DNA from: Chloroflexota bacterium
GTDB taxonomy: Bacteria > Chloroflexota > Limnocylindria > Limnocylindrales > CSP1-4
DNA length: 64,000 nt
Assembly (NCBI GenBank): GCA_030447745.1
Contig: JAUJOH010000010.1
Span: forward strand, 35,374 to 99,373
Reading direction: 5' to 3'
Shown here: in pieces, positions 1 to 64,000 of the stretch
Position numbering within the stretch: the stretch's first letter is position 1
Layout: every line of letters begins with the position of its first letter
Made by a program: the position numbers and the translations under genes
Notes under the pieces: generated by a model
The model's input: only the letters and a program-made list of their open reading frames with translations
Told to the model about the DNA's origin: nothing
The model's database searches: none

Positions 1-232
1 ATGCGCGCGGATCACGACGGCGGCGCCGTGATCGACATGGTCGAGCGATTCCACGGTCCGGACGCCGAGCGCCGCCAGGTCCCGGACCACGCCCTCGTTG
101 TGCACGTTCTGCCCGAGGGTATGCGTCAGCTTGCCCGCGGCAGCCGACTCCTTGGCCTTGTCGATGGCCTCGCGCACGCCGTAGCAGAAGCCCGTTCGCC
201 TGGCCATCTGGATCGTCTGAACCGTTCCCATG
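1..232 (-). CDS. ispH: 4-hydroxy-3-methylbut-2-enyl diphosphate reductase IspH/LytB, 5' part only (gene runs off window start)
   Basis: Minus-strand translation of 1-232 gives MGTVQTIQMARRTGFCYGVREAIDKAKESAAAGKLTHTLGQNVHNEGVVRDLAALGVRTVESLDHVDHGAAVVIRAH, matching the IspH N-terminus (FCxGVxRAI, HN..VV, IRAHG). Confidence 0.6.
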
Positions 233-297
233 TCACGACAAGTATCGCACGGGGTCGTCCGGAGGCCGCCCGGCCCGTCGGGTCCGCGGCGCATCTG

Positions 298-1839
298 TCA
301 CCGGACCGCCTCGAGGTCGCGGCGGCCGCCCCGTGGTCGGGTGCCGGAACCCGGCCTCGCCGCGTCCTCGCCGGCGTGGGCGGCGTACGTTCCCCGCTGG
401 CGCGGCGGGAGCAGCGCCGCGATGCGGCCCATCAGGCGCACCGTCGCCGCGCCCTTCGCCGCTCGGCCGCGCCGGGCGGGGGCGCCGTCGTCCGCGAGGA
501 GGAAGGGCTCGCCGATCCGGAGAGTGATCCGTCCGCCGGGCCTCGGCAGCAGCTGGCCGCGCGGCCACCGGAGATCGCTGTCGACGACGGCAAGCGGCAC
601 GATCGGCGCCCGCGTCCGCAACGCGAGCATGGCCAGACCGTCCTTCGCCGGCTGGAGCGCACCGTCCGAGCTCCGCGTTCCCTCCGGAAAGACCATCAGG
701 AGGTGCCCTTCCTCGAGGATCCGCTGAGCGAGCCGGAAGGCCTCGAGATCCGCGGTCGACCGGTCAACCGGATGGACGCCGCCGCTGCGCCCCATCCAGC
801 CGATGATCGGCCAGTCGAAGAGCTCCTTCTTGCCGAGCCAGTGGATCCGGCGTCCGAGCTGCGGCGTCAGCCACGCACCGATGACGACCGGGTCGGCGTT
901 CGAGGCATGGTTGGCGGCGAGGATCACCGGGCCGCGGCGCGGGATCGCGCGCAGATCACCTTCGATGGTGACGCGCGTCACGGCGCGGGTGATGAGGCGC
1001 GCGGCCGCTGCGACCAGCCGGATGAGCGGCGTCAGGTGGCCTTCGATGGGCTCCGGGCGCGGCCGCACGTCGCCCGCGAGGGCCCTGGCGGTCGGCGTCG
1101 TGCCGGCGGACGGCGTCCCGGCGCTCCGTGCCGCCTCCGCGGAGCGGATCGCGTCAACGACGAGCTCGACGGTCTCCTCGAACCGGTTGCCGTCCGTCAC
1201 GAGAACCCGGGCGTCGTCGGCGGGGCGAAGCGGCGCGACCGCACGCGAGCTGTCGAGCTCATCGCGGCGACGAAGCTCGGCGAGGATATCGCGCCCCTCG
1301 GCACGATCCGGGTTGACGCGGCGTTCCTCGGCCCGACGACGAGCTCGCTCGGCGACCGAGGCACTGAGGAACAGCTTGAGATCCGCGTCGGGGAGGACGA
1401 CCGTCCCGATGTCGCGACCGGCCATGATGATCCGGCCGGGCGCCGCAATCCGGCGCTGCCGGTCGAGGAGTGCCGCGCGTAGCTCCGGCACGCGGGAGAC
1501 GGCCGAGACCGCGGCGTCCACGTCGGGTCCGCGGACCTCCTTCGTCACGTCCCGGCCGTCGACGAGTACGCGGGCGAGGCGCCCCTCGGCGTCCGCTGCG
1601 AGCTCGACGTCGTCGACGAGCGCCACGAGGGCCTCGACGCCGGTGTCGCCGACGCCGCGATGGAGTGACAGCCAGGTCGCGGCCCGGTACAGCAGCCCGG
1701 TGTCGCAGAAGCGGTAGCCCAGCTCGAGCGCCGCCGCGGCACCGACGCTGCTCTTGCCGGACGAGCCCGGGCCGTCGAGGGCGACGACCAGACCGGGACG
1801 CGTCTCGGGAGCGGAAGCGGGAGCGGCGACAGCGGGCAT
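298..1839 (-). CDS. cmk: Cytidylate kinase fused in-frame to 1-acyl-sn-glycerol-3-phosphate acyltransferase (Cmk-PlsC)
   Basis: C-terminal 513 aa of ORF 298..2724. Cmk part: P-loop LVVALDGPGSSGKSSVG, LLYRA, IMAGRDIGT. After an Ala/Pro/Thr linker, PlsC part: NHASNADP and FPEGTRS. ATG at 1839. Confidence 0.7.
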   Translation of the reverse strand: MPAVAAPASAPETRPGLVVALDGPGSSGKSSVGAAAALELGYRFCDTGLLYRAATWLSLHRGVGDTGVEALVALVDDVELAADAEGRLARVLVDGRDVTKEVRGPDVDAAVSAVSRVPELRAALLDRQRRIAAPGRIIMAGRDIGTVVLPDADLKLFLSASVAERARRRAEERRVNPDRAEGRDILAELRRRDELDSSRAVAPLRPADDARVLVTDGNRFEETVELVVDAIRSAEAARSAGTPSAGTTPTARALAGDVRPRPEPIEGHLTPLIRLVAAAARLITRAVTRVTIEGDLRAIPRRGPVILAANHASNADPVVIGAWLTPQLGRRIHWLGKKELFDWPIIGWMGRSGGVHPVDRSTADLEAFRLAQRILEEGHLLMVFPEGTRSSDGALQPAKDGLAMLALRTRAPIVPLAVVDSDLRWPRGQLLPRPGGRITLRIGEPFLLADDGAPARRGRAAKGAATVRLMGRIAALLPPRQRGTYAAHAGEDAARPGSGTRPRGGRRDLEAVR

Positions 1840-1873
1840 CGGCGCGAGGATAGCGGCGCGGCGCGGGCTGTGG

Positions 1874-2690
1874 TCAGCGGCGCGGCGGCCGCCGTGGGCC
1901 CGGACCGCGCGGTCCGAGGGAGCCGGCACCGAGCTGGCGGATCTCATCCGCTCGCAGGCGGCGGGCACGACCGCTCGGCAGCGTGTCATCCAGCCGGACA
2001 GAGCCGATCCGGACGCGGACGAGTCGCTCGATCGGGCTCGCGACCGCCGCGAACATCCGGCGCAGCTTGCCGCTTCCAGCCCTGCCCGAGCACGGCGCGA
2101 TACCACGTCAAACCCTGCGCCGGCGGGTCGAGCAGTGCCTCGAGCCGCCGCGTCTCCGCGCCGGTGGAGCGTCGGAGGGGCTGGGCCAGCCGGGCGAGCC
2201 CCTCCTCGAGGCGGACGCCGCGGATCAGCTCGGTCACCTGGTCCTCGGTCAGCGGCTCGCGCAGCCCGACCGCGTACTCGCGCTCGACCCCGAACCGCGG
2301 GTGGAGCACGCGCTCGGCCCACTCGCCGTCGTTCGTCAGCAGCAGCAGCCCTTCCGAGTCCTGGTCGAGCCGACCGACGGGATAGACGCGGGCGCCGTCC
2401 GGCACCAGCGCGGTCGGCACGAGCTCGAGCACGGTCCAGTCGGCGTGCCGGTCGCGGACGGTGGATGTCACACCGGCCGGCTTGTGCAGGGCGAGGTGCA
2501 CCGGTGTTGCCGCCGACCCGATCGGGCGCCCGTCGACCTCGATGAGCGCCGTGGCCGGGTCGGCCTGGTCGCCGAGCCGGGCCGGCCGGCCGTCGACGGT
2601 GACGCGGCCGCCCGCGATGAGCGCCTCGCTCGCGCGGCGGGACGCGACGCCGGCCGACGCAAGCACCTTCTGGAGCCGCTCGGCGGGCAT
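1874..2690 (-). CDS. rluB: 23S rRNA pseudouridine synthase RluB family (S4 + PseudoU_synth_2), interrupted by a frameshift near 2050
   Basis: ORF 1986..2690: S4 domain, RLDQDSEGLLLLTNDGEWAERV. The conserved C-terminus MFAAVASPIERLVRVRIGSVRLDDTLPSGRARRL is in a different frame (ORF 1874..2056). Confidence 0.7.
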
Positions 2691-3364: not shown

Positions 3365-3375
3365 GAGATCGTCTG

Positions 3376-7322: not shown

Positions 7323-8168
7323 CTACGACGGGAGGAGCTCGATCTTCTGCCGGACCAGGTCCCAGAACGGCTGGGCTCCCGCCGGCTCGATCAGGCGGAT
7401 CGGCCGGTCGACCGCCTGGACCTCCACGACGTCCCCCACCTCGAGCGGCAGATCCTCGCGCCCGTCGATGCTGATCAGCGCCTCGTGCGCGTCGACGACA
7501 CGGCACCGGACGACCTGCTCCGGCCCCACCACGACGGACCGGATCGCCGACAGATACCCGGCGATGGGCGTGACGACCAGGTTGCGCGCCGACGGGTCGA
7601 CGATCGGGCCACCGGCCGAGAAGGAGTAGCCGGTCGAGCCGGTGGGGCTGGCGACGACGAGGCCGTCCGCGATGAACGTCGCGAGATGGCTGCGCCCGAT
7701 CGTCACGTCGAGCCGGCACACGCGCGCGAGCGCACCCCGCGCGACGACGACGTCGTTGAGCGCCGTGTGGAAGACGCCGCCGCCGTCGCGCCCGCCGGGC
7801 AGGATCCGGGCGGAGAGCGTCATCCGCTCCGCGAGCGAGAAGCGGCCGCCGGCCAGCTTGTCCAGGACACCCTCGAGCTCCTCTGCCTCGGCCTTCGAGA
7901 GGAACCCGACCTTGCCGAGGTTGATCCCGAGCAGGGGCACGTCGACCGTCGCGACGGCTCGGGCCGCACGAAGGAACGTGCCGTCGCCGCCCAGGACGAC
8001 GAGCAGGTCCGTCGTCGGGAGGTGGCCCGTGAGCGCGTCGAAGTCACCGGCCTGCGCGGACCAGTGGTCGATCCCGCGCCGGCGGCACCAGCCGGCGGCG
8101 CGCTCACCGAGGTCGACGGCCGCCTCGTTCGTCGGGTTGTAGGCGAAGCCGAGCCGGTGCACGGTCAC
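7323..8168 (-). CDS. nadK: NAD kinase
   Basis: GGDGTFL, NLGKVGFL and DGLVVASPTGSTGYSFSAGGPIV motifs. GTG at 8168 overlaps the tlyA stop as GTGA. Confidence 0.85.
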   Translation of the reverse strand: MTVHRLGFAYNPTNEAAVDLGERAAGWCRRRGIDHWSAQAGDFDALTGHLPTTDLLVVLGGDGTFLRAARAVATVDVPLLGINLGKVGFLSKAEAEELEGVLDKLAGGRFSLAERMTLSARILPGGRDGGGVFHTALNDVVVARGALARVCRLDVTIGRSHLATFIADGLVVASPTGSTGYSFSAGGPIVDPSARNLVVTPIAGYLSAIRSVVVGPEQVVRCRVVDAHEALISIDGREDLPLEVGDVVEVQAVDRPIRLIEPAGAQPFWDLVRQKIELLPS

Positions 8169-8998
8169 CCCCCGGTCGCCGCGGCCAGGCACGCCTCGAG
8201 ATCCGGCATTCCGGCGCCGGTCGCGAACCAGGCCAGGAACTCGCGGTTCCCCTCGGGACCGAGGATCGGCGACGGGATGACGCCGCGGGTGCTGAGGCCG
8301 ATCCCGTCGGCCTGCCCCACCACCCTGTCGAGCACCGCCCGGTGCGCCGCGGGGTCGCGGACGACCCCGCCCCGGGCCTCGCCCCTGCCAACCTCGAACT
8401 GGGGCTTGACCAGGACGACGATCCGGACCGCGTTCTCGCGGAACGTCGACGCGATCGGCGCGAGCACGAGCCCGAGCGAGATGAACGACACGTCGACGAC
8501 GGCGAGATCGATCGGCTCGGGCAGCGTCTGCGCGGTCAGTCCCCGCGCGTTCACGCGCTCCATCGAGATGACCCGTTCGTGGCGGCGGAGCGCTTCCGCG
8601 AGCTGGCCGCGGCCCACGTCGACGGCATAGACGCGAGCGGCGCCCCGCTGGAGCAGCACATCCGTGAACCCGCCGGTCGAGGCGCCAACGTCCAGGCAGG
8701 TCCAGCCGACGGGTTCGATGCCGAACGCGTCGAGCGCGGCCGCCAGCTTGTGCCCGCCTCGCGAGACGTACGGCTCGCGCTCCACGACGGTGACCGACGT
8801 CCCGGCCTCGAGCAGGTCGCCCGGCTTCCGATCGGTCCGCGCGCCGTCGCCCTCGCCGACCCGCACCTTGCCGGCCAGCACGAGGGCCTGCGCCCGAGCC
8901 CGCGACTCGACCAGCCCGCGCTCTACGAGGAGCTGGTCCAGGCGCTGGCGTGACGGTCTCGGTGTGCTCGCCCGGCTCACGCGGCTATCGTGGCACAC
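8165..8998 (-). CDS. tlyA: TlyA-family rRNA 2'-O-methyltransferase / hemolysin
   Basis: N-terminal S4 domain (RLDQLLVERGL) and FtsJ-like methyltransferase (LDVGASTGGFTDVLL). Confidence 0.8.
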   Translation of the reverse strand: MCHDSRVSRASTPRPSRQRLDQLLVERGLVESRARAQALVLAGKVRVGEGDGARTDRKPGDLLEAGTSVTVVEREPYVSRGGHKLAAALDAFGIEPVGWTCLDVGASTGGFTDVLLQRGAARVYAVDVGRGQLAEALRRHERVISMERVNARGLTAQTLPEPIDLAVVDVSFISLGLVLAPIASTFRENAVRIVVLVKPQFEVGRGEARGGVVRDPAAHRAVLDRVVGQADGIGLSTRGVIPSPILGPEGNREFLAWFATGAGMPDLEACLAAATGG

Positions 8999-9092
8999 CG
9001 GCCTCGCCGCGGCCGGTCCCGCGGCCGGCCGTACCGGCCCTCAGGCTGGCGGTGCGCCGTTGCCATCGGCACGATCCTCATCCCAACACTCG

Positions 9093-9527
9093 TCACGCAT
9101 CGCCGCCCCTCCGCTCGAGGAGCGCCCGCAGCTTCGGCGTCTCGTTGTGCGCGATCGCCGCGATCCGGAAGCCGTCGCCGAGGTCCGCCAGCGTGTACGT
9201 CGCGTCGAAGTCGTACAGGGCTCGTTCCTCGCCGCCGATCAGCTGCCACCGGACATCCACCTGCGCGAGCCGCTCGGTCAGCGCGGTCACGTGTTGCTCG
9301 AGGACGGCGGCCGACCGGACGCCGATCCGTCGGTAACCGGCGAGGAGCCGATCGACCTGCGGGAGCCACGCGTCGCGCGTCGCCACGGTGGCGCTGGTCA
9401 CCTCGCCGACGTCGCTCGTGACGTGGCACGGGTAGGCGAACAGGTCCGCCACCCCAGGCGCATCGTAGGCCTCGAACCGCGCCCGATGCGCGTCGAAGAA
9501 GCGCTGAATCCCGGAGTGCTCCATCAT
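9093..9527 (-). CDS. Hypothetical protein, NTF2-like (SnoaL/DUF4440-like) fold
   Basis: MMEHSGIQRFFDAHRARFEAYD...; tandem ATG at 9527/9524. Confidence 0.45.
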   Translation of the reverse strand: MMEHSGIQRFFDAHRARFEAYDAPGVADLFAYPCHVTSDVGEVTSATVATRDAWLPQVDRLLAGYRRIGVRSAAVLEQHVTALTERLAQVDVRWQLIGGEERALYDFDATYTLADLGDGFRIAAIAHNETPKLRALLERRGGDA

Positions 9528-9734
9528 CGATCGCTCCGCTTGTCGGGTCGTGCTCGCCGCTCCGTCGGCCGGCCCGGCGACGCCATTTGTCAGTGTCCGC
9601 CGCGCGCTGGAGTCCATGCCCGCCGACGAGCGGAACCCCAATCATCCGGCCCGTCGAGCGGCCTTTGGCCGGTCCGGGCGGACCCAACGCGGCGGTGGGA
9701 GCGTCGCCGGCGCCCTGTGCGTGCCACCGTCCAC

Positions 9735-10132
9735 TCACCGCGTGTCGCGGACGGTGGCACCCCACGATGCGGGATCCACGTCGGCGATCGACTCAGAGAA
9801 GGTCCAGCGGTGACCGCCGGGTCTTCCGCGACGTACTGCCGCTCGCCGTAGGGGTCGTCGATCGGCGGATCGAGGATGCGCGCTCCGGCGCGGACCGCCT
9901 GCTCGTGGTGCGCTCGTGCGTCGGTGACGCGGACATGGACCGAGTGCGTCGCGAAGCCGCCTGGGCGGACGTGCGGTGTGTCGGGCAGCCGCGTCACGAT
10001 GATGGCACCGTCACCGATCACCAGCTGGGCCCGGTGGCCCCCGATCCGAAGTCGCTCGGTGAAGCCGAACACCGGGCAGAGCCAGTCGGCTGCCTCGGCG
10101 ACGTCGGCGTACGCGAGCACCGGGATGACCAC
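9735..10132 (-). CDS. Glyoxalase/bleomycin-resistance (VOC) family protein, disrupted by a 1-bp deletion near 9808
   Basis: VIPVLAYADVAEAADWLCPVFGF...DDPYGERQYVAEDP in ORF 9590..10195. The canonical C-terminus GHRWTFSESIADVDPASWGATVRDTR-stop is in the +1 frame (stop at 9735-9737). DNA reads gcgcggtcac where gcgcgggtcac is expected. Confidence 0.6.
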
Positions 10133-10157
10133 GCTCCGGGAACGGAGCGGTTCGTGA

Positions 10158-10586
10158 TCACGTGTCGAGCTCCGCCGCCGGGGCCCCCGGCGCATCGATC
10201 GGCCGGCTGATCAGCCAGTGGTGCCCGAACGGATCACGAAGCCGGCCCTGTCGAAGGCCGTACGGCTGGTCCTGGACCGGGAAGATGACGTCGCCGCCCG
10301 CGTCGATCGCCTGCTGCGCGACGGCGTCCGGGTCATCCACGTACAGGCTGATCCGGACCGACGTCCCGCCCAGTGTCTCCGGGCTCAGGTTGCCCACTGA
10401 CGGCGTCTCATCCACCGCGCCGAACTCCGCCTCGCCGATGGCAAGGATGGCGACGACACGCCCGTCCGAGCTCGTCAGCCGCGAGAGCTCGCGAGCCCCG
10501 AAGGCGCGCTGGTAGAACTCGCTGGCTCGCGCGGCATCGCGGAGCGACAGCATGGGCATGATCCTGATCGCGGAGGCGTCTGGCAT
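10158..10586 (-). CDS. Glyoxalase/VOC family protein
   Basis: Intact 142-aa ORF: ASEFYQRAFGA...DPFGHHWLISRP. Tandem with the frameshifted VOC paralog. Confidence 0.7.
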   Translation of the reverse strand: MPDASAIRIMPMLSLRDAARASEFYQRAFGARELSRLTSSDGRVVAILAIGEAEFGAVDETPSVGNLSPETLGGTSVRISLYVDDPDAVAQQAIDAGGDVIFPVQDQPYGLRQGRLRDPFGHHWLISRPIDAPGAPAAELDT

Positions 10587-10984
10587 GAGGCTTGCTCCAT
10601 CCTGGTCGAGCTACCGACCTTGGTGAGGTGCGCGCCGGCGGACAGGTCCGCGAGCGTATTACGTCGCGGCCGAGACGCCCACGGCCCCAAGGAGAGCAGA
10701 TAATCATCGCCGGACTGGTATCTGCAGCGCGGCCTCGAAATCAGGCCAGCCATGCAGGCCAGGACTCCTGGGCCGGCTCGAGGCGGTCGGAGGACCCGGC
10801 CCTGAGCGTGGGAAGCACCGCCAGGACGGTGTTTCGGGCCGCCCAGAAGGCCCAACAGTCTGGCCGCGCATGTCTGGCCGCATTGTCGCCTGGGCGACCG
10901 GCCGCCGTGTCGTCTGGACGACCGGCCGCCCCTTTGTCGATCGAACCGCGATGATGGCGGCTGCCTCTCATCGTTCAATCGTGG

Positions 10985-11573
10985 TCAATCGGCGGCGGGA
11001 ATCCCACCTGATCGACGACCTTGGCGACGCAGCCCGACGACCACGACTGCACCGACAAGTGCGCCGAGCACCGCCGCGACGCCGAGCGTTGGCAACCCGT
11101 CCGCGGTTGGTCCCGGCTCCGCAACCGTGACGTTGAGGCGAACCCCGGGCGCCGTGGCGGGCGCAGGGAACTGCGGCAGCTCGAGCCTCCACTCACCCGA
11201 CGTCGGGAACACGACTGTCCCACGATAGAGACTGGCGTCCTCGGCATCGGGCCGAACGGCGACGTCGACTCGCGCCCCGTCAGGACCAACCGCGACGACG
11301 CGGTACGGATAGTCAGCCCCCCACAGGACGAGAACCGTGCCACTTGGCGCGGGTATCGGTCCGTCGTGTTGCATGGGGTTGGCGGCGTCTGCGCCAAAGG
11401 TGGCGAACGTGCGGACCAGAACCTCCGCCGGTTCGTCGGCAGTGGGCCGCTCGGGTGAAACGGTCAAGACGGACCACATGGCTGCCGAGGCGCGGCTCCC
11501 CATGGCCAAGGGATACGGCGGCGATCGCGAGCGCGATGACCAGCGACGGCAACCATGCCGGACGACGGTCCAT
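10985..11573 (-). CDS. Hypothetical exported or membrane-anchored protein; an N-terminal signal peptide may be joined to the body by a frameshift near 11510
   Basis: ORF 10985..11509 has a coding-like body (DYPYRVVAVGPDGARVDVAVRPDAEDASLYRGTVVFPTSGEWRLELPQF) and a C-terminal TM (LGVAAVLGALVGAVVVVGL). A typical signal peptide MDRRPAWLPSLVIALAIAAVSLGHG sits in the adjacent frame (ATG at 11573). Confidence 0.35.
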
Positions 11574-11577
11574 CAAC

Positions 11578-13686: not shown

Positions 13687-13858
13687 GCGGTGCTCCTGCG
13701 AGCGATGCCAGTGGACAGGACCGTCGACCGTTGGTTCGAGCCGGACAGCGGTTCGGATGGCAGTCGGACGAGTCTACCGTTCTCCGGCGTGACGCCCGGT
13801 TGGCGTCAATACTTGATACCACGGATGCGCACGTTGTGCGACGTGCGGCCGAGCTGGG

Positions 13859-25890: not shown

Positions 25891-26029
25891 GATCCGCGGG
25901 TCACGGTCGGAGTCGGGGGCCCCACGCGGGCAATGGTAACGAACGGGCCGGTCCGGTCGCGTCAGCTCGGGGGCGCGGAAGATGCGTGGCGCTGGACGCG
26001 CGTCGGCGCTCCCGCGATGCGCGCGGTCC

Positions 26030-26509: not shown

Positions 26510-26535
26510 GACATCGCCCTCGTTCCAGATCGGAT

Positions 26536-54566: not shown

Positions 54567-55851
54567 TCATCCGCCCGGCTGCCGGCGAACGGACCCGTCG
54601 ACCCGTGCCGCGAGCAACCCGGCCGGTCGATAGCGTCCGTACGCGTCGACCACCAGCCCGCGCATCTCGAGCATGGTGAGCGCGGTCAGGACCGACGAGA
54701 CCGGGAGCGCGGTGGCCGCGACCAGCTCGTCCACGGTCGTATGGCCGGCCAGCAGCTGTCCCGCCACCGTCCGCGGCACCTCGCCGACCTCGCCGAGCGA
54801 GGCCGCGACGGAGCGCGGGACGACGTGCCACCGTCGAGGTCGGTCCGGACCAGGTCGAGATCCTCGAGCAGCTGCGATACGCCGGCCACGATCCCGGCCA
54901 CGCCCGGCGCGTCACGGAGGAGCGACAGGCAGCCCGCGCTCGTCAGGCGGTCGATCGGCCCCGGAACGACGAAGCAGTGACGTCCCTGCTCGAGCGCCCA
55001 GTGGGCCGTGACGAGTGCGCCGCTGCGCGCGCCGGCCTCGACCACGACCGTGGCGTCCGACAGGCCGCTGATGATCCGGTTTCGGCGCGGAAACGTCCCA
55101 CGCGTCGGCTCGACGTCCGGCGGCAGCTCGGACACGACCGCGCCGCCGCCGTCGATGATCGCGTCGACCAGCCGCCGATGCGACCGCGGGAACAGCCGCT
55201 CGTGCCCACCGCCGAGCACGGCCACCGTCGTGCCGCCCTCGGCGAGGCACGCGGCGTGCGCGGCACCGTCGATGCCCACCGCAAGACCGGAAACGACCGC
55301 TGCGCCGGCCCGCGTGACGGCGCCCGCGATCCGGGCGGCGGTCAGCCGACCCGCCTCCGACGGGCGGCGCGTCCCGACCACCGCCACGGCGCGGGCCGTG
55401 CCAAGGGCGGCGCGATCGCCGCGGAGGAACAGGACGTGGGGCGGCACCTCGATCGCCCGGAGGCGGGGCGGGTAGTCCTCGTCGTCGAGCGTGACGAGGC
55501 CCACGCCGGAGCGGTCGATCCCGGCCAGCGTCGCCTCCGCGCTGCGGGCCGAGGCAACGACCGCGCGGATCACCCCGTCGGTGCCTGTCGCTCCGCCGAG
55601 CTGGCGGCGTCGGCAAGCGACGCCTCGTCGCCGCGTGCTGCGGCCTCGAGGACTGCTCGTGCCGAGCCCACGGCCGAGACGAGACGCCCCAGGGTGATCG
55701 GACCGAGGCCGTCGACGCTCACCAGGACGGCAAGCGCCTGCCGTTCCGTCAGGCCACCGGGCGAAGCGTCCGGCGGCCCCGCCGGCTCGGATGGCGCCGG
55801 CCGGATGGCGAGACCCGGCCCCAGAGGTCTGGTGCGGCCGACCCCCAGCAT
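54567..55851 (-). CDS. dprA: DNA processing protein DprA (Smf), read through two apparent frameshifts (near 55575 and 54800)
   Basis: N-terminal SAM-like segment LTERQALAVLVSVDGLGPITLGRL (ORF 55570..55851); Rossmann core GIDGAAHAACLAEGGTTVAVLGGG (ORF 54686..55573); C-terminal winged helix RTVAGQLLAGHTTVDELVAATALPVSSVLTALTMLEMRGLVVD (ORF 54567..54779). Confidence 0.75.
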
Positions 55852-57207
55852 CAGCTGGCCATCCGCTGCGCCAGCCTGCTTGCCGGCGGTCGCGCGCGGC
55901 CTCCTCGAGGTGGACCGCCTCGACGGATTCCGAACTGGCCAGGTCCGCGATGGTCCGAGCGACGCGGATCAGGCGCTCGGTCCCCGCCCGGACAGGCGCT
56001 CCAGCTCCGCGAGGTCCACGGCACGCCGCTCCGCGGTCGGTCCATCCTTGCCGCCACCCGGAGCGCCCGGCCGCGGACGCGGGCGTTGAGTGCCCCTGGC
56101 GGTCGTCCCGCCTGGCGCAGTCGGGCGGCCGCGATCCGCTCGGCGACCACGCTCGACGTCTCGGGCGTCGCCCCGGTCACGAGCGCGGTGGCCGGGACGC
56201 GCGGCATCGTGGCCCAGATGTCGATCCGGTCGCGCAGCGGTCCGAGATGCGGGCGGCATATCGGTCCGCCACGGTGTCCGGGCACCGGCACTCCGGGTGT
56301 GCCGGCGAGGCCGCACGGGCACGGGTTCATCGCCGCCACGAGCTGGAAGCGGGCCGGGAAGATCGTCGCGCGCCCGACCCTCGAAGATGGCGACGCGCCT
56401 GGCGGAGGGCCTCGATGACGGCGACGGCCGAACTCCCGGCAGCTCGTCGAGGAACAGGGTCGCGTCTGCCAGGGTCACCTCGCCCGGCGAGAGCCGCGGC
56501 CCCCCGCCGACCATCGCCGCGTAGGAGAGCGTGTGGTGTGGGGCGCGGAACGGCGGCCGCCGAACGAGTGTCCGCACGGGCCCGTTGCCGGACACCGACG
56601 CGATGACGGTCGCGGTCAGCGCGGCGCTGTCGCCGAGCGGCGGCAGCACGCCGGGAATCGTCCGTGCCAGGAGCGTCTTGCCGGAGCCGGGCGGCCCGAT
56701 CAGCAGGATCCCGTGCCCGCCGGCGAGCGCGATCTCCAGCGCCCGCCGCGCCTCGAGCTGCCCATGCACCTCGGCCAGATCCGGCACGACGTCTCCCCCA
56801 ATGGCGTCCGGCGGCACGGCGGCCGGTGCCTCGCGTCCCGCCGCCTCGATCCGCTCCGGCGCTCCCCGCGACCGCCGACGCGAACGGCTCGAGCGGACGA
56901 CGTCGACGGCCGCGCCGAGCGACGCCACCGCGACCACGTCCACGCTGTCCGCGAGACGGGCCTCGTCCGCGGCCGCCGCCGGCACCACCACGCGGGTGGC
57001 GCCGCGACGCGCCAGCGCAGCGACCATCGGCAGCACGCCCGGCACGACCCGCACCTCGCCACCGAGCGACAGCTCGCCGATGAGCGCCAGACCTCCGGGT
57101 GCGGCGTGCACCTGCTCAGAGCCGAGAAGGATCCCGATCGCGATCGCGAGGTCAATGGACGACCCGGCCTTGCGCAGGTCCGCCGGGGCGAATAGTGAGA
57201 TATGGCG
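55851..57207 (-). CDS. comM: Mg-chelatase-like AAA+ ATPase ComM/YifB, 5'-truncated (about 70 N-terminal codons missing) and with internal frameshifts
   Basis: ISLFAPADLRKAGSSIDLAIAIGILL (Lon-like N-domain), LLIGPPGSGKTLLARTIPGVLPPL (Walker A), FRAPHHTLSYAAMVGGG, LFLDELP (Walker B), then MAAMNPCPCG in another frame. The reading frame opens only at 57207, directly after a TAG. Confidence 0.7.
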
Positions 57208-57288
57208 CTAGGTTGCTTGATCGCAGGGGCGGCATGAGGTACCCAGTCGCGGGCGGTCTCAGACGGCTCCGCTAGACGCTGTGGTCGG

Positions 57289-57798
57289 CTACCGATCGGG
57301 CCGGTACGGCGCCTTGGCGTCGATGCTGCCGACGAACTGCGGCAGGCGAGCGTGACCGAGCTGCTGGCGGATGGCGGCATTCTCGCCGGTGTGGAACCAG
57401 TAGTGGTAGATGACCCGCTGGAGCAGGTCGCCGTAGCGGCGCTTGAGCTCCGACCCGCCGCTGATGACGTGGCGCTCCAGATCGTCGCTCGTCAGCGTGT
57501 CGAGCCAGGGATCGGCGGCCGCAGCGAGCGCGCGCCAGGCATCGAGCACGCGCTGCAGCGGCGGCGTGCTGGCCGGCCCACCGGAGGCGAACTCGCGGTC
57601 GATGTCCGGAAAGGGCCGCTGGCCACTCGGCCAGGTGACGAAGTACTGCTGCTCTTGCCAAGCGAGATGGCCGACGTTCCAGCTGATGGAGTTCATCGGT
57701 CCGATGCGTCGGCGGGCATCGTCATCGGTGACTCCGCGGATGCCACGGATGAACTCGGTGCGTGTGAACCGCAGTTGGTCGACGAGCGGGTGCGGCAT
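57289..57798 (-). CDS. DinB_2-family (DinB/YfiT-like) metal-dependent protein
   Basis: 169 aa: WNVGHLAWQEQQYF...VIYHYWFHTGENAAIRQQLGH. Confidence 0.65.
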   Translation of the reverse strand: MPHPLVDQLRFTRTEFIRGIRGVTDDDARRRIGPMNSISWNVGHLAWQEQQYFVTWPSGQRPFPDIDREFASGGPASTPPLQRVLDAWRALAAAADPWLDTLTSDDLERHVISGGSELKRRYGDLLQRVIYHYWFHTGENAAIRQQLGHARLPQFVGSIDAKAPYRPDR

Positions 57799-57904
57799 GC
57801 GACGATCCTCTCACCCATTGTTGGCAGCGTCTGGCAGGAATCCCGATCAGACTTGCACGCGCACGGTAGATGGGAGGGGCAGCAGTGAACCCTGGCTCGT
57901 CGAG

Positions 57905-58380
57905 ATGATGCGCTACAACGCGTGGGCGAACCGGACGCTGTTGGATGCCTGCCGAGAGCTGACCGACCAGCAGCTCGATGCCCGTCTTCCGGTCACGTCG
58001 GGATCCAGCCGTGAACTGCTGATCCACATCATCGGCGGCCAGCAGACATTCGCGCTGCGCACGAGGGGTCGCCAGCATGAGGGGGAGCTGCATCGGGGCA
58101 GTGCCTGGCCGGGTATGGACGAGATCATCCGACTGGCCGCGAGCACGAACGAGGAGCTCATCTCGATGCCGAGCAGCTCGACCCTGAGCATGAGACCGAT
58201 CTCCCGTACCTCGGCACTGTGTATCGGTATCCAACTCGCTTCTTCCTCGTCCATGCGGCCGCGCACGGGGTCGAGCACCGCGCCGAGGTGAAGCTCAACC
58301 TCGCGCACATCGGCGTCGACACGCCCGATATGGACGGCTGGGCCTACGGTGAAGCGACCGGATACGGTGCCGAAGTCTGA
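57905..58380 (+). CDS. DinB-family protein with a frameshift near 58190
   Basis: MMRYNAWANRTLLDACRELTDQQLDARLPVTSGSSRELLIHIIGGQQTFALR... then in the +1 frame DAEQLDPEHETDLPYLGTVYRYPTRFFLVHAAAHGVEHRAEVKLNLAHIGVDTPDMDGWAYGEATGYGAEV-stop. Confidence 0.6.
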
Positions 58381-58499
58381 CTGCGGACGGTGTGGCACGC
58401 CAGGACGCCGCAGGCTAGCGGCCGCTCGCTCCCATCATTCGGTTCTCGCGACGGGCTGTGCCGCACGAATGGCTCGCGGCATCCGCCTAAGATCACATG

Positions 58500-58856
58500 T
58501 CAGGGTGATTGCTGGTGGAGGAGCAGCTTCCACTCGCCGTTCCGTCGGACATAGACGCTCGACATCGCCGCTTCGTATCGCGCCTGGCCCGGCCGTTCGC
58601 CCACGGCCTTATAGGTGATCAACGCGACGTCATCGTCGCCAGTGACGCGGACAGCGCTCAACTCATAGCTAGACCATGGAGCGACTTGGGGGATGGTGCC
58701 GAGCGAAGCCTTCTTGTCCATCACCATGCCGGGGAAGACCATCAGTCCCTCCTCGGCCATGATGTCCTCGTAGAACGCCGCTCCGCCCGGACCGGACAGC
58801 GCATCCCAGCCTTGGCGCTCTAGCCCGTCTACCTCGGCGCGCAGTGCGTCGTTCAC
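58500..58856 (-). CDS. SnoaL-like / DUF4440 (NTF2-fold) protein
   Basis: 118 aa: ...AFYEDIMAEEGLMVFPGMVMDK...YVRRNGEWKLLLHQQSP. Confidence 0.55.
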   Translation of the reverse strand: MNDALRAEVDGLERQGWDALSGPGGAAFYEDIMAEEGLMVFPGMVMDKKASLGTIPQVAPWSSYELSAVRVTGDDDVALITYKAVGERPGQARYEAAMSSVYVRRNGEWKLLLHQQSP

Positions 58857-59059
58857 ACCGCGAGTATGTGCAAGCGTCTTGCCCTAAGTCCAGCAGTGCC
58901 GGGATCTCCTCGCAGGTCCAGATATGGTCCGCGGCGCCTGCGGCGTCGTCCGCCGAGTCGCCTGACACGCATTTATGAAGGAGCGGCCGGTGTCAATGGG
59001 CGTCGCTCGATCGGCTCATCGATGCTCCGAGCGGCCAATGCGGCTGGCAGAATCGACGG

Positions 59060-59455
59060 ATGTTCGCCGTCGAGAATCGTGAACGCGTTCGAGATCATGT
59101 GCTGGCCCGAGCTCACTCGGATCCCGCCATCGTCGCCGCGGCCTTCGTCGGGTCCTTCGCCGGAGGCACGGACGATCGCTGGTCGGACCTGGATCTGACG
59201 TTCGCAGTAGCAGAGGGCCAGGCGGTTGATGAAGTCCTCGAGGAGTGGACTCGCTGGTTCTCACGAGACTTCGAGGCGCTCCGGCTCTTCGACTGGCCGG
59301 TGCCGCCCACCATCTATCGGGTGTTCCTCTTGCCGGGCAGCCTGCAGGTTGATCTCTCGTTCACGGCCGTCAAGCTGGGCCGCGAAGTGGTTATCGGCCA
59401 GCCCGCCACTCACGACGTCCGGGCGGGGGGTGCAGGTTTGCGTGATAGAGGCTAG
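59060..59455 (+). CDS. Nucleotidyltransferase-domain protein (aminoglycoside/antibiotic adenylyltransferase-like), possibly truncated
   Basis: AAFVGSFAGGTDDRWSDLDLTFAV (Pol-beta-like NT motif GS...D.D). 131 aa is short for the family. Confidence 0.45.
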   Translation: MFAVENRERVRDHVLARAHSDPAIVAAAFVGSFAGGTDDRWSDLDLTFAVAEGQAVDEVLEEWTRWFSRDFEALRLFDWPVPPTIYRVFLLPGSLQVDLSFTAVKLGREVVIGQPATHDVRAGGAGLRDRG

Positions 59456-60098
59456 CCCGGGCACAACCCGCCCTCCTTATCGAGTATTGCTTGCCGCCGC
59501 GCTTCCGGCTCCTGGAATTGGCTGTTCGAGGGCAGGGCGCATCCCCGCGCCCGAAGGGTACCCGCTTTCACTTACGTGTCGCAGAGAGCAGGACCATGGA
59601 GCAACTGAGCGGGATTCGAATCAGGGGACGGAGGCCGCTCGATCGTGGTGACCGGCGTGCCAATGCGACAGCAGATAACTCGACGCTCTACGCCCCCCAC
59701 CCACGCACGGTGCTACAGCGCATCGGCCGGGATGGTCCGAGGTTAGCAAGCCAGTCACTAACCACCGTTAGTGGCGGCGCTGGCAGTTCATGACGCACAC
59801 CGACCTGCGCTTGAGGGCCGACGGCCTCGACTTCTGGGTCGACGTACACGTTCACCCTTCGACGGCGGATGGCTGGCGGTGGCCGACCTCGCCGGCGAGC
59901 CGGAGCTTCGGTGGGCATACGAGGCGGCCGGTGCCGTCAAGACGGCCGCCGGGCTTGGCCCGGTCGCCCGCCGTCGCTGCTGTGGCTCAACGGGAGCTTA
60001 GCGACCAATAGGCATCACGTACGTATCCTAGGCGACCACTTTTCCTCTTACCCAGAGGGTCGCAGTGCGCTAATTCACTACGCAACCAGTTTTTGCGA

Positions 60099-60905
60099 TC
60101 ACTCGCTGCGGCTCCTGGAGAGCCTCTTATCGCCGAGGCGAACGCACTTCATCTCGCGACGGTCGTGAAACCGCGCGGTCGAGTCGGCTTGTTGGCCGAC
60201 TTCTTGCCCGCGGCCCCACGAATCTCCTCCACGGACACCGAGTCTCCGAATAGCAGCCGGGCCTGTCATCCATGGAGTCCCTGAACATCGCCTGCCTTCG
60301 TCAACGTCAATCCTGCTTGTGACAAGCTGCTCCTGACGCAACTCAGCGCGCCGCGTCCGTCCGGCGCCACAATCATCGAACGGCTGTTCTGATACGGGTC
60401 CAAGGCTGCATTACAGGATGCGAACCAGATGGTGTTCTCTGCCGCACGCGTAACAATCATCGAATGGTGATCCAACTTCGCGCGGCGGTGTGTGGTGTTG
60501 TTCTGAGGATGGAAGACGATCTGTGCGCCCTGGCGAACGATCAGCAGTGGTCGCGGCGAACGGAAGCCTTCGAAGCAGATAACAACACCAACTCGGACCC
60601 CTTGGATATCGAAGGTCTCAATCGAGCCTCCGGCCGAGTACGCCAGGGCGTCTAAGGGCGTGAGTTTTGTCTTGTGGTGGTGCCCTGCAGGATCCCGCAG
60701 GTCCTATGACCACCGCAGAGTTGTATCTGTGCCATCCGCCAGATTTGGCGTCTCCGTACCAAGAATGCAACCGATCCTCGTTGGGCACATCGCATGGCGA
60801 GCTGTGCAGGGATGATGCGGCGGGGCTTGGCGCCCGCGGATCGACAATGTCGACGGTAACCGACGGTTTGCGCGGAAAGCACAGGATGTCAACTCCAGGC
60901 CACAT
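60099..60905 (-). pseudogene. Carbon-nitrogen hydrolase (nitrilase/amidase superfamily) remnant, multiple frameshifts
   Basis: Fragments in three frames: WPGVDILCFP...HRYNSAVVIGPAG; MIVTRAAENTIWFASCNA; SRIDVDEGRRC. Lower GC than the rest of the window. Confidence 0.45.
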
Positions 60906-60992
60906 AGTCTATGTACCGCAGGATCGTTTCGGCGTTCGCATCGAAGTCATTCGTCTGACGGACCTGCGCGAGTCCGATCGTCAGCGGGCGCA

Positions 60993-61633
60993 TTACCGAT
61001 CGGCCCTCTTCAGACCGATTTTTATGAATGTCGTATCACGGGAGAAGATGTCCCCGCTCAGCATCCCAGCACGTTCGGCGATCCGCCAGAACGCGTAGTC
61101 AGCCAGTTCAACGACGGTTGCTTCTAAGCTTCTAACGACCGTTTCCGCTTCGCCACCTGTCGTGTGATACCCGGCGGCGTGAGCGACTGCTTCCGGAAGA
61201 CCGTCGTCAGAGCCACATGGACTCCGTATGCGGGATGGCGGATCGCCGGTAGCCCTGCAGCGGCGGGGTCCGCCCTCCATGATTGTCGGGGTCATATTCG
61301 AAGGCTTTGCCAACGTCATGACATAAGGAGGAAGCGACAAGAATGTCGCGGTCGATCCTCGTCGCGCCTGTCACTTCTTCAAGCCCGTCCGCCATCCTGT
61401 CGAGCCGTCGCTCGCAAGTGATCTGCCTGAGATAGGTGCGTCAGGACCGCAGTCCCAGGGACACCCGAGGCTGGAATGTCCTCGATGCGCCGGAACGACG
61501 TTCGGCTCAAAGCGAAGACCCATGCCTCAATGACCTTGGTCCGAAGCGCGTCATCCTGAATGAGATCCAGCTCCGGCAGGCTTGCCTTCACACCGGATCG
61601 GAGCTCCGCCTCTCGACTGTCTTCCTCAGTCAT
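60993..61633 (-). pseudogene. HD-domain phosphohydrolase remnant (fragmented)
   Basis: ILVASSLCHDVGKAFEYDP (HD motif) in ORF 61207..61395; N- and C-terminal pieces in ORFs 61379..61633 and 60993..61340. Confidence 0.4.
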
Positions 61634-61656
61634 CTAGATCCTCCAGTCATCCCTCG

Positions 61657-62994
61657 CTAAAAGTAAGTGCGTATTGCTCCCGTAATGCTGCCGTCCGGGC
61701 GAGCCGTGAAGAGGGTCCGCCAGCGGTCGAATGCTGAGCACGGATGAGAAACACCCAACGCAACGATGTCGGTGACGCCTACTCGTGACCCCGACGGCAC
61801 TTCGAGATAAGCGTGGTGGTCGTCCAAGCGTCGGATTCTGTAGCGCGAGTCGACAGCACCGTGGCTGCCGTCCGAACGGATCACGGTGAGTGGCACCGGA
61901 AGCCCGGCATCATAGGGGGCGTCGCGCCGCCCCAACAGCAGGATCGCCAGGCGCTCTTCAGGCCGCGATATCACCGGTGCCCACAAAGTGAGAGCCGCCC
62001 GAAGTCCGTCGCCCGATGGTCGGTAACGTCGACTTCCGAGAGGCGACATTTTGTCGTAGATCCCGGAGTCGTGGGCGATATATGCCCCCGAGCGCAGGAT
62101 CAACTGCATGTCATCGGTAGCAAAGTCGGCGTACTCCGCGACGACGATGTCGAAGTACGCACTACCACCCGCGGAAACCAGGAACGGCTCAACATCTCGG
62201 GCCAGCGGCCGGAGCATGTTTGCGATCACCCCGAGCTCGCGTAGATAGTCTCGGACGGGGTCTGGAGTCGCTGGCTGGCTTTGCCGGCGCGTGATTGTGC
62301 CCTCAAACCCAGCGACGCCGGCCAGCACAAGGTGTCTACTCTGCTCCACCTCGCGTGCGATTGCCACGGCCGTGGCTGGGTATCGAACGCCCGTCCGTCC
62401 GCCGTCTTGACCAACCTCAAGCAGCACCGGAAGTCGGCGAGGCGTACCGCTAAGGCGCTCGTCGAGCATTCGTACACCGTCGATGCTATCGACAAAGACA
62501 ATGACTTCCGTGAGGCGCTCGCCGACGAGTTGCTCGCGCAGATAGCGCGTGTCATGGCTGGTGGCGACCTCGGTTGCGACCACCACTCTAGGAACGCCGA
62601 AGGCCTCGCAGACGGCCAGCTGAGGAATGGTTGCAACGGTGATCGCCCAAGCGCCCGCCCGGAGTTGCTCCGCGAAGATCTGCGGCGCCATCGTCGTCTT
62701 GCCGTGTGGAGCCAGCCAAGCGTTGTGTTCGTCAGCGTACCGCTGCATGACGACCGCGTTGTTGAGCAGGGCATCCGAATCCAGGGTTAGGAGGGGGAGC
62801 GGAACGTCCGTCGAACCGACGTACCAACCCTGCCGCCCTACCTCGCTCAGCGCTATCGGCGCCTTGTGAGCAGTTGCTCGGTCAATGGCAGGCATCGGGC
62901 TATCAAGGAGCCCCTCGATTGCCGCCTCGACAACTGGCGTGGACCCGTGGGGTCTCGGTTCGAAGTGGAGTTGTTTCTTCGACGGATCCGCCAT
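61657..62994 (-). CDS. PLP-dependent enzyme with alanine-racemase-like N-domain (D-serine dehydratase-like / D-threonine aldolase DSD1 family)
   Basis: Intact 445-aa ORF: WLAPHGKTTMAPQIF (PLP-Lys in HxKT context), then a C-terminal beta-domain. Divergent from the IclR regulator. Confidence 0.7.
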   Translation of the reverse strand: MADPSKKQLHFEPRPHGSTPVVEAAIEGLLDSPMPAIDRATAHKAPIALSEVGRQGWYVGSTDVPLPLLTLDSDALLNNAVVMQRYADEHNAWLAPHGKTTMAPQIFAEQLRAGAWAITVATIPQLAVCEAFGVPRVVVATEVATSHDTRYLREQLVGERLTEVIVFVDSIDGVRMLDERLSGTPRRLPVLLEVGQDGGRTGVRYPATAVAIAREVEQSRHLVLAGVAGFEGTITRRQSQPATPDPVRDYLRELGVIANMLRPLARDVEPFLVSAGGSAYFDIVVAEYADFATDDMQLILRSGAYIAHDSGIYDKMSPLGSRRYRPSGDGLRAALTLWAPVISRPEERLAILLLGRRDAPYDAGLPVPLTVIRSDGSHGAVDSRYRIRRLDDHHAYLEVPSGSRVGVTDIVALGVSHPCSAFDRWRTLFTARPDGSITGAIRTYF

Positions 62995-63006
62995 AGCCCT
63001 TCAAGC

Positions 63007-63036
63007 TTGACAGGGAAGGAGGTCACAGCCTACCAT
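63007..63036 (+). promoter_or_regulatory. Candidate sigma70-like promoter for the IclR regulator in the divergent intergenic region
   Basis: TTGACA (63007-63012), 18-nt spacer, TACCAT (63031-63036); 26 nt upstream of the iclR ATG at 63062. Confidence 0.3.
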
Positions 63037-63061
63037 CCCCGCAGGTCGCTATACGAGCAAT

Positions 63062-63847
63062 ATGTCCGATATGCGAGCGGATGGCCGGAATTCCGCACTG
63101 GGCGTGCTTCAAAACGGAATGGCCCTCTTGGAACTTCTCGCCACGCGTGGAGGCCTGACCGTGGCCGAAGCGAGCCGAGGGATCGGCATTAGCCGCGCCG
63201 CAGCGTTCCGGCTCCTTCACACATTGAGCGTGCAGGGATACGTTCTTAAGAACTCTCGATCCCCTCGTTATTACCCCGCCGCCCGTCTAATCGCGCTGGG
63301 TCAGTCGCTAACGTCCTCGACCGCGATTGCCGGACTAATGAAGAGCGCCATGGCGACGCTCTTCGAGCTTTATGGCGAGACGGTGAATGTCGGACTCCCG
63401 CACGGCGATCGTGTTCTCTACATCGACATGCTCGAGAGCCGCCGTGGGCTCCGTATGGCTGCGCAGATCGGTGAACGGGACCACCTCCACTCCACGGCGC
63501 TCGGGAAAGCCCTGCTCGCGGCTTTGAGTCACGAGGACGCAGCAGCGTTGATAGCGGGAATCCCACTCCCGAGGCTCACCCACAGCACGATCACGTCGCG
63601 AACCGCACTGTTCGCAGAGATTGCCAGGATCCGCGAACGCGGCTATGCGGTCGATGATGAAGAGAATGAAATGGGCGCGCGATGCGTGGGCGTGGCAATT
63701 CGTGACGCCGGCCGTCCAGTTGTCGCCCTTAGCGTTTCAGGTCCCTCCGTCAGGATGCCGGAAGCCCTCATCGCGGACATTGGACGGAAGCTGGTGGCGA
63801 CGCGCGACGGGCTGGAGGCCGCGGACCATGCTTGGACTAACGCGTGA
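63062..63847 (+). CDS. IclR-family transcriptional regulator
   Basis: N-terminal wHTH (LTVAEASRGIGISRAAAFRLLHTLSVQGYV) and a C-terminal IclR effector-binding domain. Confidence 0.85.
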   Translation: MSDMRADGRNSALGVLQNGMALLELLATRGGLTVAEASRGIGISRAAAFRLLHTLSVQGYVLKNSRSPRYYPAARLIALGQSLTSSTAIAGLMKSAMATLFELYGETVNVGLPHGDRVLYIDMLESRRGLRMAAQIGERDHLHSTALGKALLAALSHEDAAALIAGIPLPRLTHSTITSRTALFAEIARIRERGYAVDDEENEMGARCVGVAIRDAGRPVVALSVSGPSVRMPEALIADIGRKLVATRDGLEAADHAWTNA

Positions 63848-64000
63848 CGCTCGCTATCTCGCCGTCTGGCTCAACATCGAGGTGATTGCGGCCGGCGTCA
63901 ATAGCACCTTTCGTGCTGGAACCTCTATGGCATCACAATCGGCACCTTTGGTCACGTTGGAGACGGCAATCTGCACCCGACCCTCGTCCTGCCACGGGGA

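Follow-up and report, generated by a model that had tools for sequence, protein, structure and literature searches.

Introduction

Pseudogene-rich genomes, such as those of Mycobacterium leprae and of recent host-restricted bacteria, carry stops and raised nonsynonymous change, spare essential genes and have lesions that are common to relatives. Genomic islands also interrupt genes, as AbaR/Tn6022-type elements do when they enter comM in Acinetobacter; both comM and dprA function in natural transformation. Residual indel errors of long-read consensus assemblies reportedly fragment gene calls as well, a point said to have been made by Watson & Warr in 2019. Gene-fragmenting errors are a known problem of long-read assemblies (PMC12007338), indels in Nanopore consensus sequence lead to frameshifted gene calls, polishing is needed for bins with less than about 40x coverage (PMC9262707), and the MFD assemblies are Nanopore-only with one Medaka round (PMC12313526).

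We analyzed a 64-kb stretch of Limnocylindria DNA (the window) for which a sequence-only reading had claimed at least 18 frame breaks in conserved genes. The window resembles long-read (Nanopore or PacBio CLR) assemblies with residual indels in that conserved genes are broken by small indels, in part in short runs, the protein signal persists unbroken on either side of each break, the number of breaks follows technology and coverage, and the effect is reproduced in Nanopore-only sister metagenome-assembled genomes (MAGs). It differs from them in being rich in deletions, including deletions of 2–31 nt, and in having errors that are strongly patchy rather than spread. With M. leprae-type genomes it shares a high number of frameshifted genes over a short distance, but stops, a nonsynonymous rise, spared essential genes and shared lesions were all unseen in the window. 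Like the AbaR/Tn6022-type insertions, it has a comM gene interrupted near its 5′ end and followed by foreign-looking DNA of lower GC content, whereas the transposition/integration genes, repeats and second junction of such insertions were not found in the window.

Materials and Methods

Orthologous proteins were aligned to the window DNA with our own frameshift-aware dynamic programming, using as references 170 related loci plus database homologues; all reference ORFs used were full length. Frameshift-aware alignment to orthologues had been proposed as a check on the original claim, and it confirmed the breaks. Plain BLASTX chaining was rejected as a break detector: it missed the mnmA breaks and most comM breaks, because HSPs bridge short out-of-frame stretches in GC-rich DNA. 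Apparent gene-end breaks at 9000, 13690–13727, 14256, 17871–17880, 25924–25946, 33311, 35256, 37239, 40925, 44448 and 54460 were discarded, since spurious breaks at gene starts and ends arise where stop-to-stop reference ORFs run on into the adjoining gene.

Results

Orthologue alignment and family profiles placed at least 27 small insertions or deletions in the window, disrupting 11 well-conserved genes: rluB, alaS, mnmA, dprA, comM, an APH-family kinase, a PCD-VOC fusion, a VOC gene, two DinB-like genes and a gene of about 700 aa. One or other of these approaches recovered all 18 of the sites originally listed, to within some 40 nt. At each break (27 sites) both sides match one orthologue colinearly and the frame is recovered by a small indel. 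This number of breaks is far above chance; the 16 other (mostly short-read) loci of relatives contain none in alaS.

The breaks are strongly clustered and not window-wide. Most lie in two patches, 24.5–29.5 kb and 54.8–58.2 kb, and the remainder are four singletons; the description of the frameshifts as pervasive is thus not borne out. The stretch from 29.5 to 54.8 kb (about 24–25.4 kb) is free of breaks, with more than 15 genes untouched, and such a clean run of about 24 kb means that, contrary to what had been suggested, not every CDS boundary is suspect. The variance/mean ratio of break counts in 2-kb bins was 3.85 and the largest break-free gap 25.4 kb; neither value was attained by any of 20,000 random placements of the breaks. 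Each dense patch spans a structural difference from relatives: that at 24.5–29.5 kb takes in an insert of 2.7 kb that lies between alaS and mnmA, with borders at about 26.0 and 28.7 kb, and that at 54.8–58.2 kb a junction inside comM. Another insert has its borders at about 9.04 and 11.58 kb. High-GC dropout was rejected as a cause of the patches, as local GC varies between them (0.69–0.78). RNA searches across the window found nothing.

The breaks comprise about 18 deletions versus nine insertions, with multi-base deletions among the former. Most are indeed 1 nt, several are 2–5 nt and a few are longer, and the label "single-base" fails for at least seven of them (deletions of 2, 2, 4, 5, ~13 and ~31 nt and one large internal deletion). 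Homopolymers had been named as the place of the breaks, and this holds for roughly half of the resolvable sites, which are length changes in runs of 2–6 bases (among them 9814, 25424, 29442, 55986, 56245, 56297 and 56436); the others lie outside runs, in window DNA (73% GC) where 42% of bases are in runs of at least two and 11% in runs of at least three. Two of the PCD-VOC deletions lie in GTAC and several comM sites are near CCGG, as seen among about 25 imprecisely placed sites in DNA of 73% GC; a methylation-motif cause of the indels is unproven.

Two breaks were found in alaS (minus strand), near the positions given earlier. The one at 24574 (24569–24580; 7/7 references) is not a single-base change; about 31 nt (10 codons and one further base) are deleted, where DRPGFEEALAQQRQRSRSGKK is aligned against a stretch of ten protein letters, and the deletion places positions 145–428 and 435–847 of TIGR00344 in separate frames. 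The other, at 25422–25425 (25420–25428; 8/8 references), is the loss of 1 nt within or next to a run of Gs (TGG GGG AC GTC) and separates TIGR00344 positions 1–147 from 145–428. The middle segment of alaS has 93% amino-acid identity to its orthologue.

In mnmA (minus strand) the breaks crowd the C-terminal third (29085–29445), where three had been claimed and we find four to five: at 29442 (−1), ~29285 (+1), 29166 (+1), 29138 (+1 or −2) and, more weakly, 29089 (+1). Four of these are backed by 6/6 references, and in the closest relative (L001) the region is one ORF. The break in rluB (minus strand; 2060–2070, site 2066–2068; 5/5 references) is an insertion of 1 nt, the window having CGG CAA G CTG versus CGG CAG CTC in relatives, and it splits NCBIfam TIGR00093 between frames (positions 1–123 and 123–159).

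Between alaS and mnmA, the APH-family gene (plus strand) has lost 1 nt at 26773 (26770–26776; GAC GC GAT) and 1 nt at 27336 (27333–27339; TCA TT CGG), each supported by 5/5 homologues. After correction it encodes 248 aa that are 85–90% identical to five homologues, the 90% figure applying over the full 248 aa. The PCD-VOC fusion (Pterin_4a + Glyoxalase_6; 27641–28297, minus strand) carries deletions at 28078 (−2), 28020 (−5) and 27920 (−2), the outer two corresponding to breaks reported previously and the middle one having gone unlisted. Its Pfam pieces are split between frames, and after correction it encodes a protein with 96% identity to P0121 (223 aa). Its DNA is 95% identical to that of the related locus L170, with 28 substitutions in 676 nt and exactly three gaps, all of them the frame-breaking deletions on the side of the window; 3′ of the first break the amino-acid identity to L170 is 98%, with a nonsynonymous/synonymous ratio of 0.33.

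The VOC/glyoxalase gene (minus strand; 9808–9818, site ~9814) has a G run shortened by 1 nt, such that reading-frame translations give GCGGTCAC where GCGGGTCAC is expected. With the base restored, the protein spans Pfam PF00903 from position 7 to 121 of 121 (E 5e-13), and PDB 3itw_A aligns with it through the C-terminus '...DPAGHRWTFSESIADVDPASWGA'.

A break in dinB was confirmed, at ~58165 (58150–58195, plus strand), and the product, which matches Pfam DinB, is a DinB-superfamily four-helix protein and not, as the name had implied, polymerase IV. Positions 7–63 of the profile are in one frame and 107–160 in another, and the corrected protein covers positions 10–160 of 165 with an E value of 1.4e-13, versus 1.4e-6 and 1.6e-3 for the fragments. 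The small DinB-like gene between efp and xseA (15687–15913, minus strand) is different in kind: a frame break is present at ~15769, as was claimed, but it is not a single-base event, for a large internal deletion is found as well. Its N-terminal 48 aa (matched by 50 homologues) and C-terminal 23 aa are in separate frames with the middle missing, and against P0365 the gene both changes frame and has a gap of 22 residues or more. This lesion looks structural rather than like a small error and could be a real feature. A frameshift in xseA itself was considered and discarded; xseA is intact from GTG 15690, with the same start in L164 and L166, and the break is that of the small upstream gene.

A further break, absent from the original list, disrupts the ~700-aa gene upstream of ruvX (within 21100–21574, minus strand). 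Its N-terminal domain is in frame −1 (22132–21572) and its C-terminal domain in frame −3 (21200–19872); the two frames are matched by 35 and 44 reference ORFs, relatives have a single ORF, and the break falls somewhere in a low-complexity linker. False fusions had also been feared, but the single ORF that joins cmk and plsC is not one, since L161 carries the identical arrangement as a 470-aa gene.

The second patch begins in dprA (minus strand), which has a net −1 change at ~54826 (54805–54853), a position that can be given only roughly owing to the poor conservation of the region, and another at ~55578 (55575–55584) in its N-terminal part; both are supported by 6/6 references. For comM (minus strand) at least two breaks had been claimed, and reference alignment located eight in its 3′ part (55886–56440): 56436 (+1), 56423 (+1), 56392 (−1, with a 12-nt gap), 56297 (+1), 56245 (−1), ~56040 (−1), 55986 (−1) and 55894 (−4). 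Seven are supported by 4/4 to 8/8 references and that at 56383–56392 by 7/8. All eight fall within 550 nt and the adjoining 750 nt are clean, while the segments between breaks are near-identical to those of the relative L081, in which comM is one 521-aa ORF and dprA and topA are also single ORFs. At 57189–57190 homology to comM stops abruptly at orthologue residue 72. This is not an indel: codons 1–71 are missing from the entire window, and past this point lies lower-GC DNA (62–66%) with unrelated genes. Neither an integrase nor a transposase was found in 57.2–64 kb, and neither repeats nor a second junction for a putative island in comM are visible in the window. The junction may mark either the entry of an island or a chimeric assembly join, and the latter accounts for it as well as an AbaR/Tn6022-type island does. 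The 5′ truncation of comM looks structural rather than like a small error and, as with the gene at 15.7 kb, could be a real feature.

Across the window, segments between breaks have 83–98% amino-acid identity to intact orthologues, frame-corrected genes align end to end with orthologues, and in the orthologues one frame is enough to encode these residues. No in-frame stop interrupts comM, mnmA or central dprA once their frames are corrected. In comM, amino-acid identity and the nonsynonymous/synonymous ratio were 0.83 and 0.46 in the error patch versus 0.84 and 0.45 in the clean 5′ part, a ratio that is equal inside and outside the patch, and in the tested genes we saw neither excess substitutions nor raised nonsynonymous change beside the indels. 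Relaxed selection thus appears to be absent, although the test would have little power against very recent pseudogenisation. The breaks are private to the source record, with L001 (mnmA) and L081 (comM, dprA, topA) intact.

Sequencing technology offered a control. In 39 Nanopore-only MFD loci (822 kb), a crude scan for frame switches gave 123 events and 28 affected loci, versus 5 events in 520 kb of 41 other MAG loci. Moreover, alaS was frameshifted in 13/37 Nanopore-only MFD loci (22 events at differing positions) versus 0/16 other (mostly short-read) loci. The alaS indels of the Nanopore-only relatives are almost all +1 insertions; the indel spectrum of the window is unlike theirs, and therefore its pipeline differs from theirs.

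Discussion

What forces broke so many genes in so short a stretch of DNA? The frame breaks are very probably consensus errors of the assembly and not features of the organism. In this respect we agree with the sequence-only reading, which had favored indel errors over pseudogenes: the shifted segments are conserved, substitution ratios are unchanged, stops are absent, relatives are intact and Nanopore-only MAGs behave alike. The source would be a soil or sediment Limnocylindria (Chloroflexota) MAG whose assembly most likely drew on noisy long reads and was incompletely polished. Where read support was thin, small indels may have persisted in the consensus, and those that survived would cut normal genes into pieces in differing frames. 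Both patches may derive from only a minority of reads, as from a rarer strain variant, and their patchiness is more in keeping with read support lost locally than with decay that is uniform.

If instead all the breaks were real, the lineage would be one of unusual gene decay with a pseudogene-rich genome. The many breaks in 11 genes, together with some multi-base deletions that are atypical of homopolymer errors, could be read in that way, yet we consider it highly improbable. Pseudogenes are expected to spare essential genes, whereas here essential alaS carries two breaks in a 64-kb window and would be left dead, unless a second copy lies beyond that window; selection is not relaxed, neither stops nor an excess of substitutions is seen, a continuous stretch of about 24 kb that holds more than 15 genes has no break, the genes of relatives are intact, and the identical phenomenon follows sequencing technology in sister MAGs. 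Programmed recoding, in which ribosomal frameshifting or transcriptional slippage would restore the proteins, deserves next to no credence, even though the five mnmA shifts total +3 and regain the original frame. It would have to act at 27 sites, in both directions and on sizes from 1 to ~31 nt; no common slippery motif was noticed by eye in the aligned contexts; the net shift in comM is not divisible by three; and the comparison with orthologues, which use a single frame for the same residues, effectively refutes it.

A mixed case, in which most breaks are errors but comM-dprA was truly inactivated, with decay of both genes setting in after a lower-GC element entered comM at codon 72, and the 15.7-kb gene is a relic, is unlikely, though it draws on several observations: the abrupt end of comM homology at 57189 with 71 codons missing and unrelated genes of 62–66% GC beyond, the adjacency of dprA and comM, both natural-transformation genes, and a DinB-like gene that lacks its entire middle at a position where relatives have no such gene. 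Its more specific form, a lower-GC element 6.8 kb or longer at comM codon 72 with comM and dprA in a first stage of decay in which indels precede substitutions, we hold to be improbable. Against the mixed case, the eight comM breaks occupy only 550 nt and the 750 nt beside the junction are clean, identity and substitution ratio are equal in both parts of the gene, the comM indels come without stops or added substitutions, 57.2–64 kb has no integrase or transposase, and the patch runs on past the junction into the DinB-family gene, as a low-coverage stretch would.

Since consensus error rather than gene decay is our preferred reading, the breaks are a data-quality warning and not biology; the finding matters solely as a quality flag, refined by the limited extent of the damage, which is local. 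From the source record, at least 11 genes would be called pseudogenes or fragments, and it would be false to infer that the source MAG had lost competence or translation functions. As far as homology tells, gene models are reliable at 2.7–9, 11.6–15.7, 16–21 and 29.5–54.8 kb, and unreliable, also structurally, at 24.5–29.5 kb, at 54.8–58.2 kb and at the 57189 junction. The garbled products of broken genes pass into protein catalogues. Several of the database representatives that we encountered already bear out-of-frame tails.

Frame breaks and their distribution

The window contains no fewer than 27 frame breaks, spread over 11 genes, and all 18 of the sites listed in the sequence-only reading proved real when judged by frameshift-aware alignment, homologues and family profiles. 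The profiles alone place alaS in three frames (TIGR00344 positions 1-147, 145-428 and 435-847, one frame each) and rluB in two, with dprA and comM also split. Plain BLASTX reads through short out-of-frame segments when the DNA is rich in GC, and we therefore built an aligner of proteins to DNA that tolerates changes of frame and aligned 192 reference ORFs from relatives to the window. IscS and TopA served as probes for the related loci, every one of which comes from metagenome-assembled Chloroflexota of the class Limnocylindria; the best by DNA identity are L001 (~85%) and L081 (~80%). The window has a GC content of 73%, carries nearly all its genes on the minus strand, and shares with these relatives the orders ruvX-mltG-pepP-efp-xseA-xseB-dxs-tlyA-nadK-recN-xerD-...-scpA-scpB-rluB-cmk-plsC, alaS-...-mnmA-iscS and comM-dprA-topA; searches of the 64 kb for tRNA, tmRNA and Rfam families found none. 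Apparent events at gene borders were rejected, since they stem from the use of reference ORFs that run from stop to stop.

All or nearly all covering references agreed on the breaks in rluB (2066), alaS (24574 and 25424), mnmA (29442, ~29285, 29166 and 29138, with a weaker one at 29089), dprA (~54826 and ~55578) and comM (55894, 55986, ~56040, 56245, ~56297, ~56392, 56423 and 56436). Genes in two lineage-specific inserts, among them APH and the Pterin_4a-Glyoxalase_6 fusion PCD-VOC (27641-28297, minus strand), required database homologues as references. APH is broken at 26773 and 27336; once its frame is corrected it encodes a 248-aa product that shares 85-91% identity, end to end, with many proteins of that length. 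PCD-VOC has deletions at 28078 (2 nt), 28020 (5 nt) and 27920 (2 nt); after correction its product shares 96% identity with the 223-aa database protein P0121, and the DNA is 95% identical to that of the JGI contig L170 with exactly three gaps, confirming the three deletions. In a VOC gene (~9814) and a DinB-family gene (~58165) the corrected proteins match Pfam models across the junction with far better scores, the former also matching a PDB relative. The latter gene had been read as dinB; its product is a four-helix protein of the DinB superfamily rather than DNA polymerase IV. Beyond the sites listed earlier, the linker of a conserved ~700-aa gene is broken at 21.1-21.57 kb.

Between efp and xseA, homologue alignment of a small DinB-like gene (15687-15913) placed its conserved N-terminal 48 and C-terminal 23 residues in different frames with the middle missing. 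Relatives have no gene at that place, and the gene may be a genuine relic or may have suffered a larger deletion in assembly; xseA itself is intact.

The breaks had been described as pervasive single-base shifts, placed in homopolymers where resolvable. They are instead significantly clustered: neither the variance/mean ratio over 2-kb bins (3.85) nor the largest clean gap (25.4 kb) was attained in 20,000 random placements. There is no supported break in 2.7-9 kb, the gene at 21.8-23.1 kb, iscS, dxs, xseA, efp, pepP, mltG or anywhere in 29.5-54.8 kb. Many sites are indeed single-base, but at least seven events are not (~31 nt in alaS; 2, 5 and 2 nt in PCD-VOC; 4 and ~13 nt in comM; the large deletion at 15.7 kb), and length changes in short base runs account for about half of the resolvable events but not for the remainder.

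Origin of the frame breaks

Are these breaks errors or genuine gene decay? Three independent lines of evidence (coding signal, privacy and technology) point to consensus errors. The comM segments between the eight breaks encode protein almost identical to that of L081, and the error patch matches the clean 5′ part of the gene in amino-acid identity (0.83 vs 0.84), DNA identity (0.772 vs 0.779) and nonsynonymous/synonymous codon ratio (0.46 vs 0.45). Under neutral decay, eight indels in 550 nt should come with many substitutions; these are absent. Similarly, identity is 98% (to its homologue) in PCD-VOC downstream of its first break and 93% in the alaS segment that follows its first break, and no stop interrupts comM, mnmA or central dprA in the corrected frames displayed. 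The nearest relatives have single ORFs for mnmA (L001) and for comM, dprA and topA (L081), making the lesions private to this record, and alaS, which is broken here, is an essential gene.

Within this clade, the frequency of such lesions also tracks technology. Scanned by the same method, 39 loci from Microflora Danica (MFD) MAGs gave 123 frame switches in 822 kb vs five in 520 kb for 41 loci from other MAGs, and breaks in alaS occur in 13 of 37 Nanopore-only loci, at positions that always differ, vs none of 16 others. The MFD MAGs are Nanopore-only with one Medaka round (PMC12313526), and frameshifted gene calls are known to stem from Nanopore consensus indels, with polishing needed for bins below ~40x coverage (PMC9262707; PMC12007338). 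The window has ~18 deletions and nine insertions, some multi-base, vs almost pure +1 insertions in the MFD loci, and its chemistry or pipeline likely differs from theirs; the sequencing platform of its record is one that we infer. Judged on the sequences compared, then, the breaks are an assembly artefact, as the sequence-only reading had proposed in preferring indel errors to pseudogenisation. This class of artefact is already well known, and the value of the result lies in marking two patches as unreliable and one junction as suspect; its scientific interest is otherwise low.

Individual MFD loci (L005, L006, L008, L030, L045, L068 and others) have up to 17 frame switches in 21 kb, alaS included. 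Several database proteins, P0364 and P0370 among them, have tails that look out-of-frame; evidently, errors of this kind have made their way into public protein catalogues.

Why would the errors be patchy? Both dense patches span a structural difference from relatives: that at 24.5-29.5 kb encloses a 2.7-kb insert that separates alaS from mnmA (26000-28700; DUF1801, APH-family kinase and the PCD-VOC fusion) where L001 has only ~180 bp, and that at 54.8-58.2 kb covers 57189, where comM homology ends and DNA of 62-66% GC starts. A minority strain carrying these variants would supply few supporting reads and hence a poor consensus. Local GC was rejected as a cause, as it does not account for the patches.

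The 85-91% identity of corrected APH is to Actinomycetota proteins (Micromonospora, Nonomuraea, Sphaerisporangium and Acrocarpospora), unusually high across phyla, which points to horizontal transfer or to a family under very strong constraint. PCD-VOC looks cassette-like, its alignment with L170 being confined to the gene with the flanks unaligned; two of its three deletions lie inside GTAC.

The comM junction

At 57189, homology to comM sets in abruptly with orthologue residue 72, and the first 71 codons are absent from the window. Upstream (57189-64000) the GC content is 0.66, then 0.62, vs 0.73, and this 6.8 kb holds genes for two DinB-family proteins, a DUF4440/SnoaL protein, a putative D-serine dehydratase of alanine-racemase fold (Ala_racemase_N/D-ser_dehydrat) and an IclR regulator, with no recombinase in the interval and no match or synteny in any relative's locus. 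The junction reflects either a genuine insertion (an island in comM) or rearrangement, or else a chimeric join made in assembly. Neither reading alters the conclusion on the small indels. The comM breaks sit within 550 nt far from 57189 and show no decay.

Other features of the window

At 301-1790 one stop-free frame encodes cmk and a PlsC-type acyltransferase; relatives have a single 470-aa gene (L161) or two overlapping genes (L163, L166), and the fusion is probably natural and variable within the clade. TlyA (P0001), the sole database protein that matches the window exactly, was annotated as 238 aa lacking the S4 domain; the N-terminal part is encoded in the DNA (tlyA, 8168-9040), the proteins of relatives are ~271 aa, and the start codon looks miscalled in the source annotation. 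Whereas tlyA and dxs are adjacent in relatives, here a lineage-specific insert of ~2.5 kb (9040-11580) separates them, with a DUF6841 NTF2-like gene, two glyoxalase/VOC genes and further ORFs without assignment. The ~700-aa gene (19872-22132), upstream of ruvX, is conserved and combines a conserved N-terminal and a C-terminal domain with a Pro/Ala/Gly-rich linker of ~470 nt and a predicted hydrophobic stretch, and its orthologues carry a precomputed Pfam Baseplate_J assignment.
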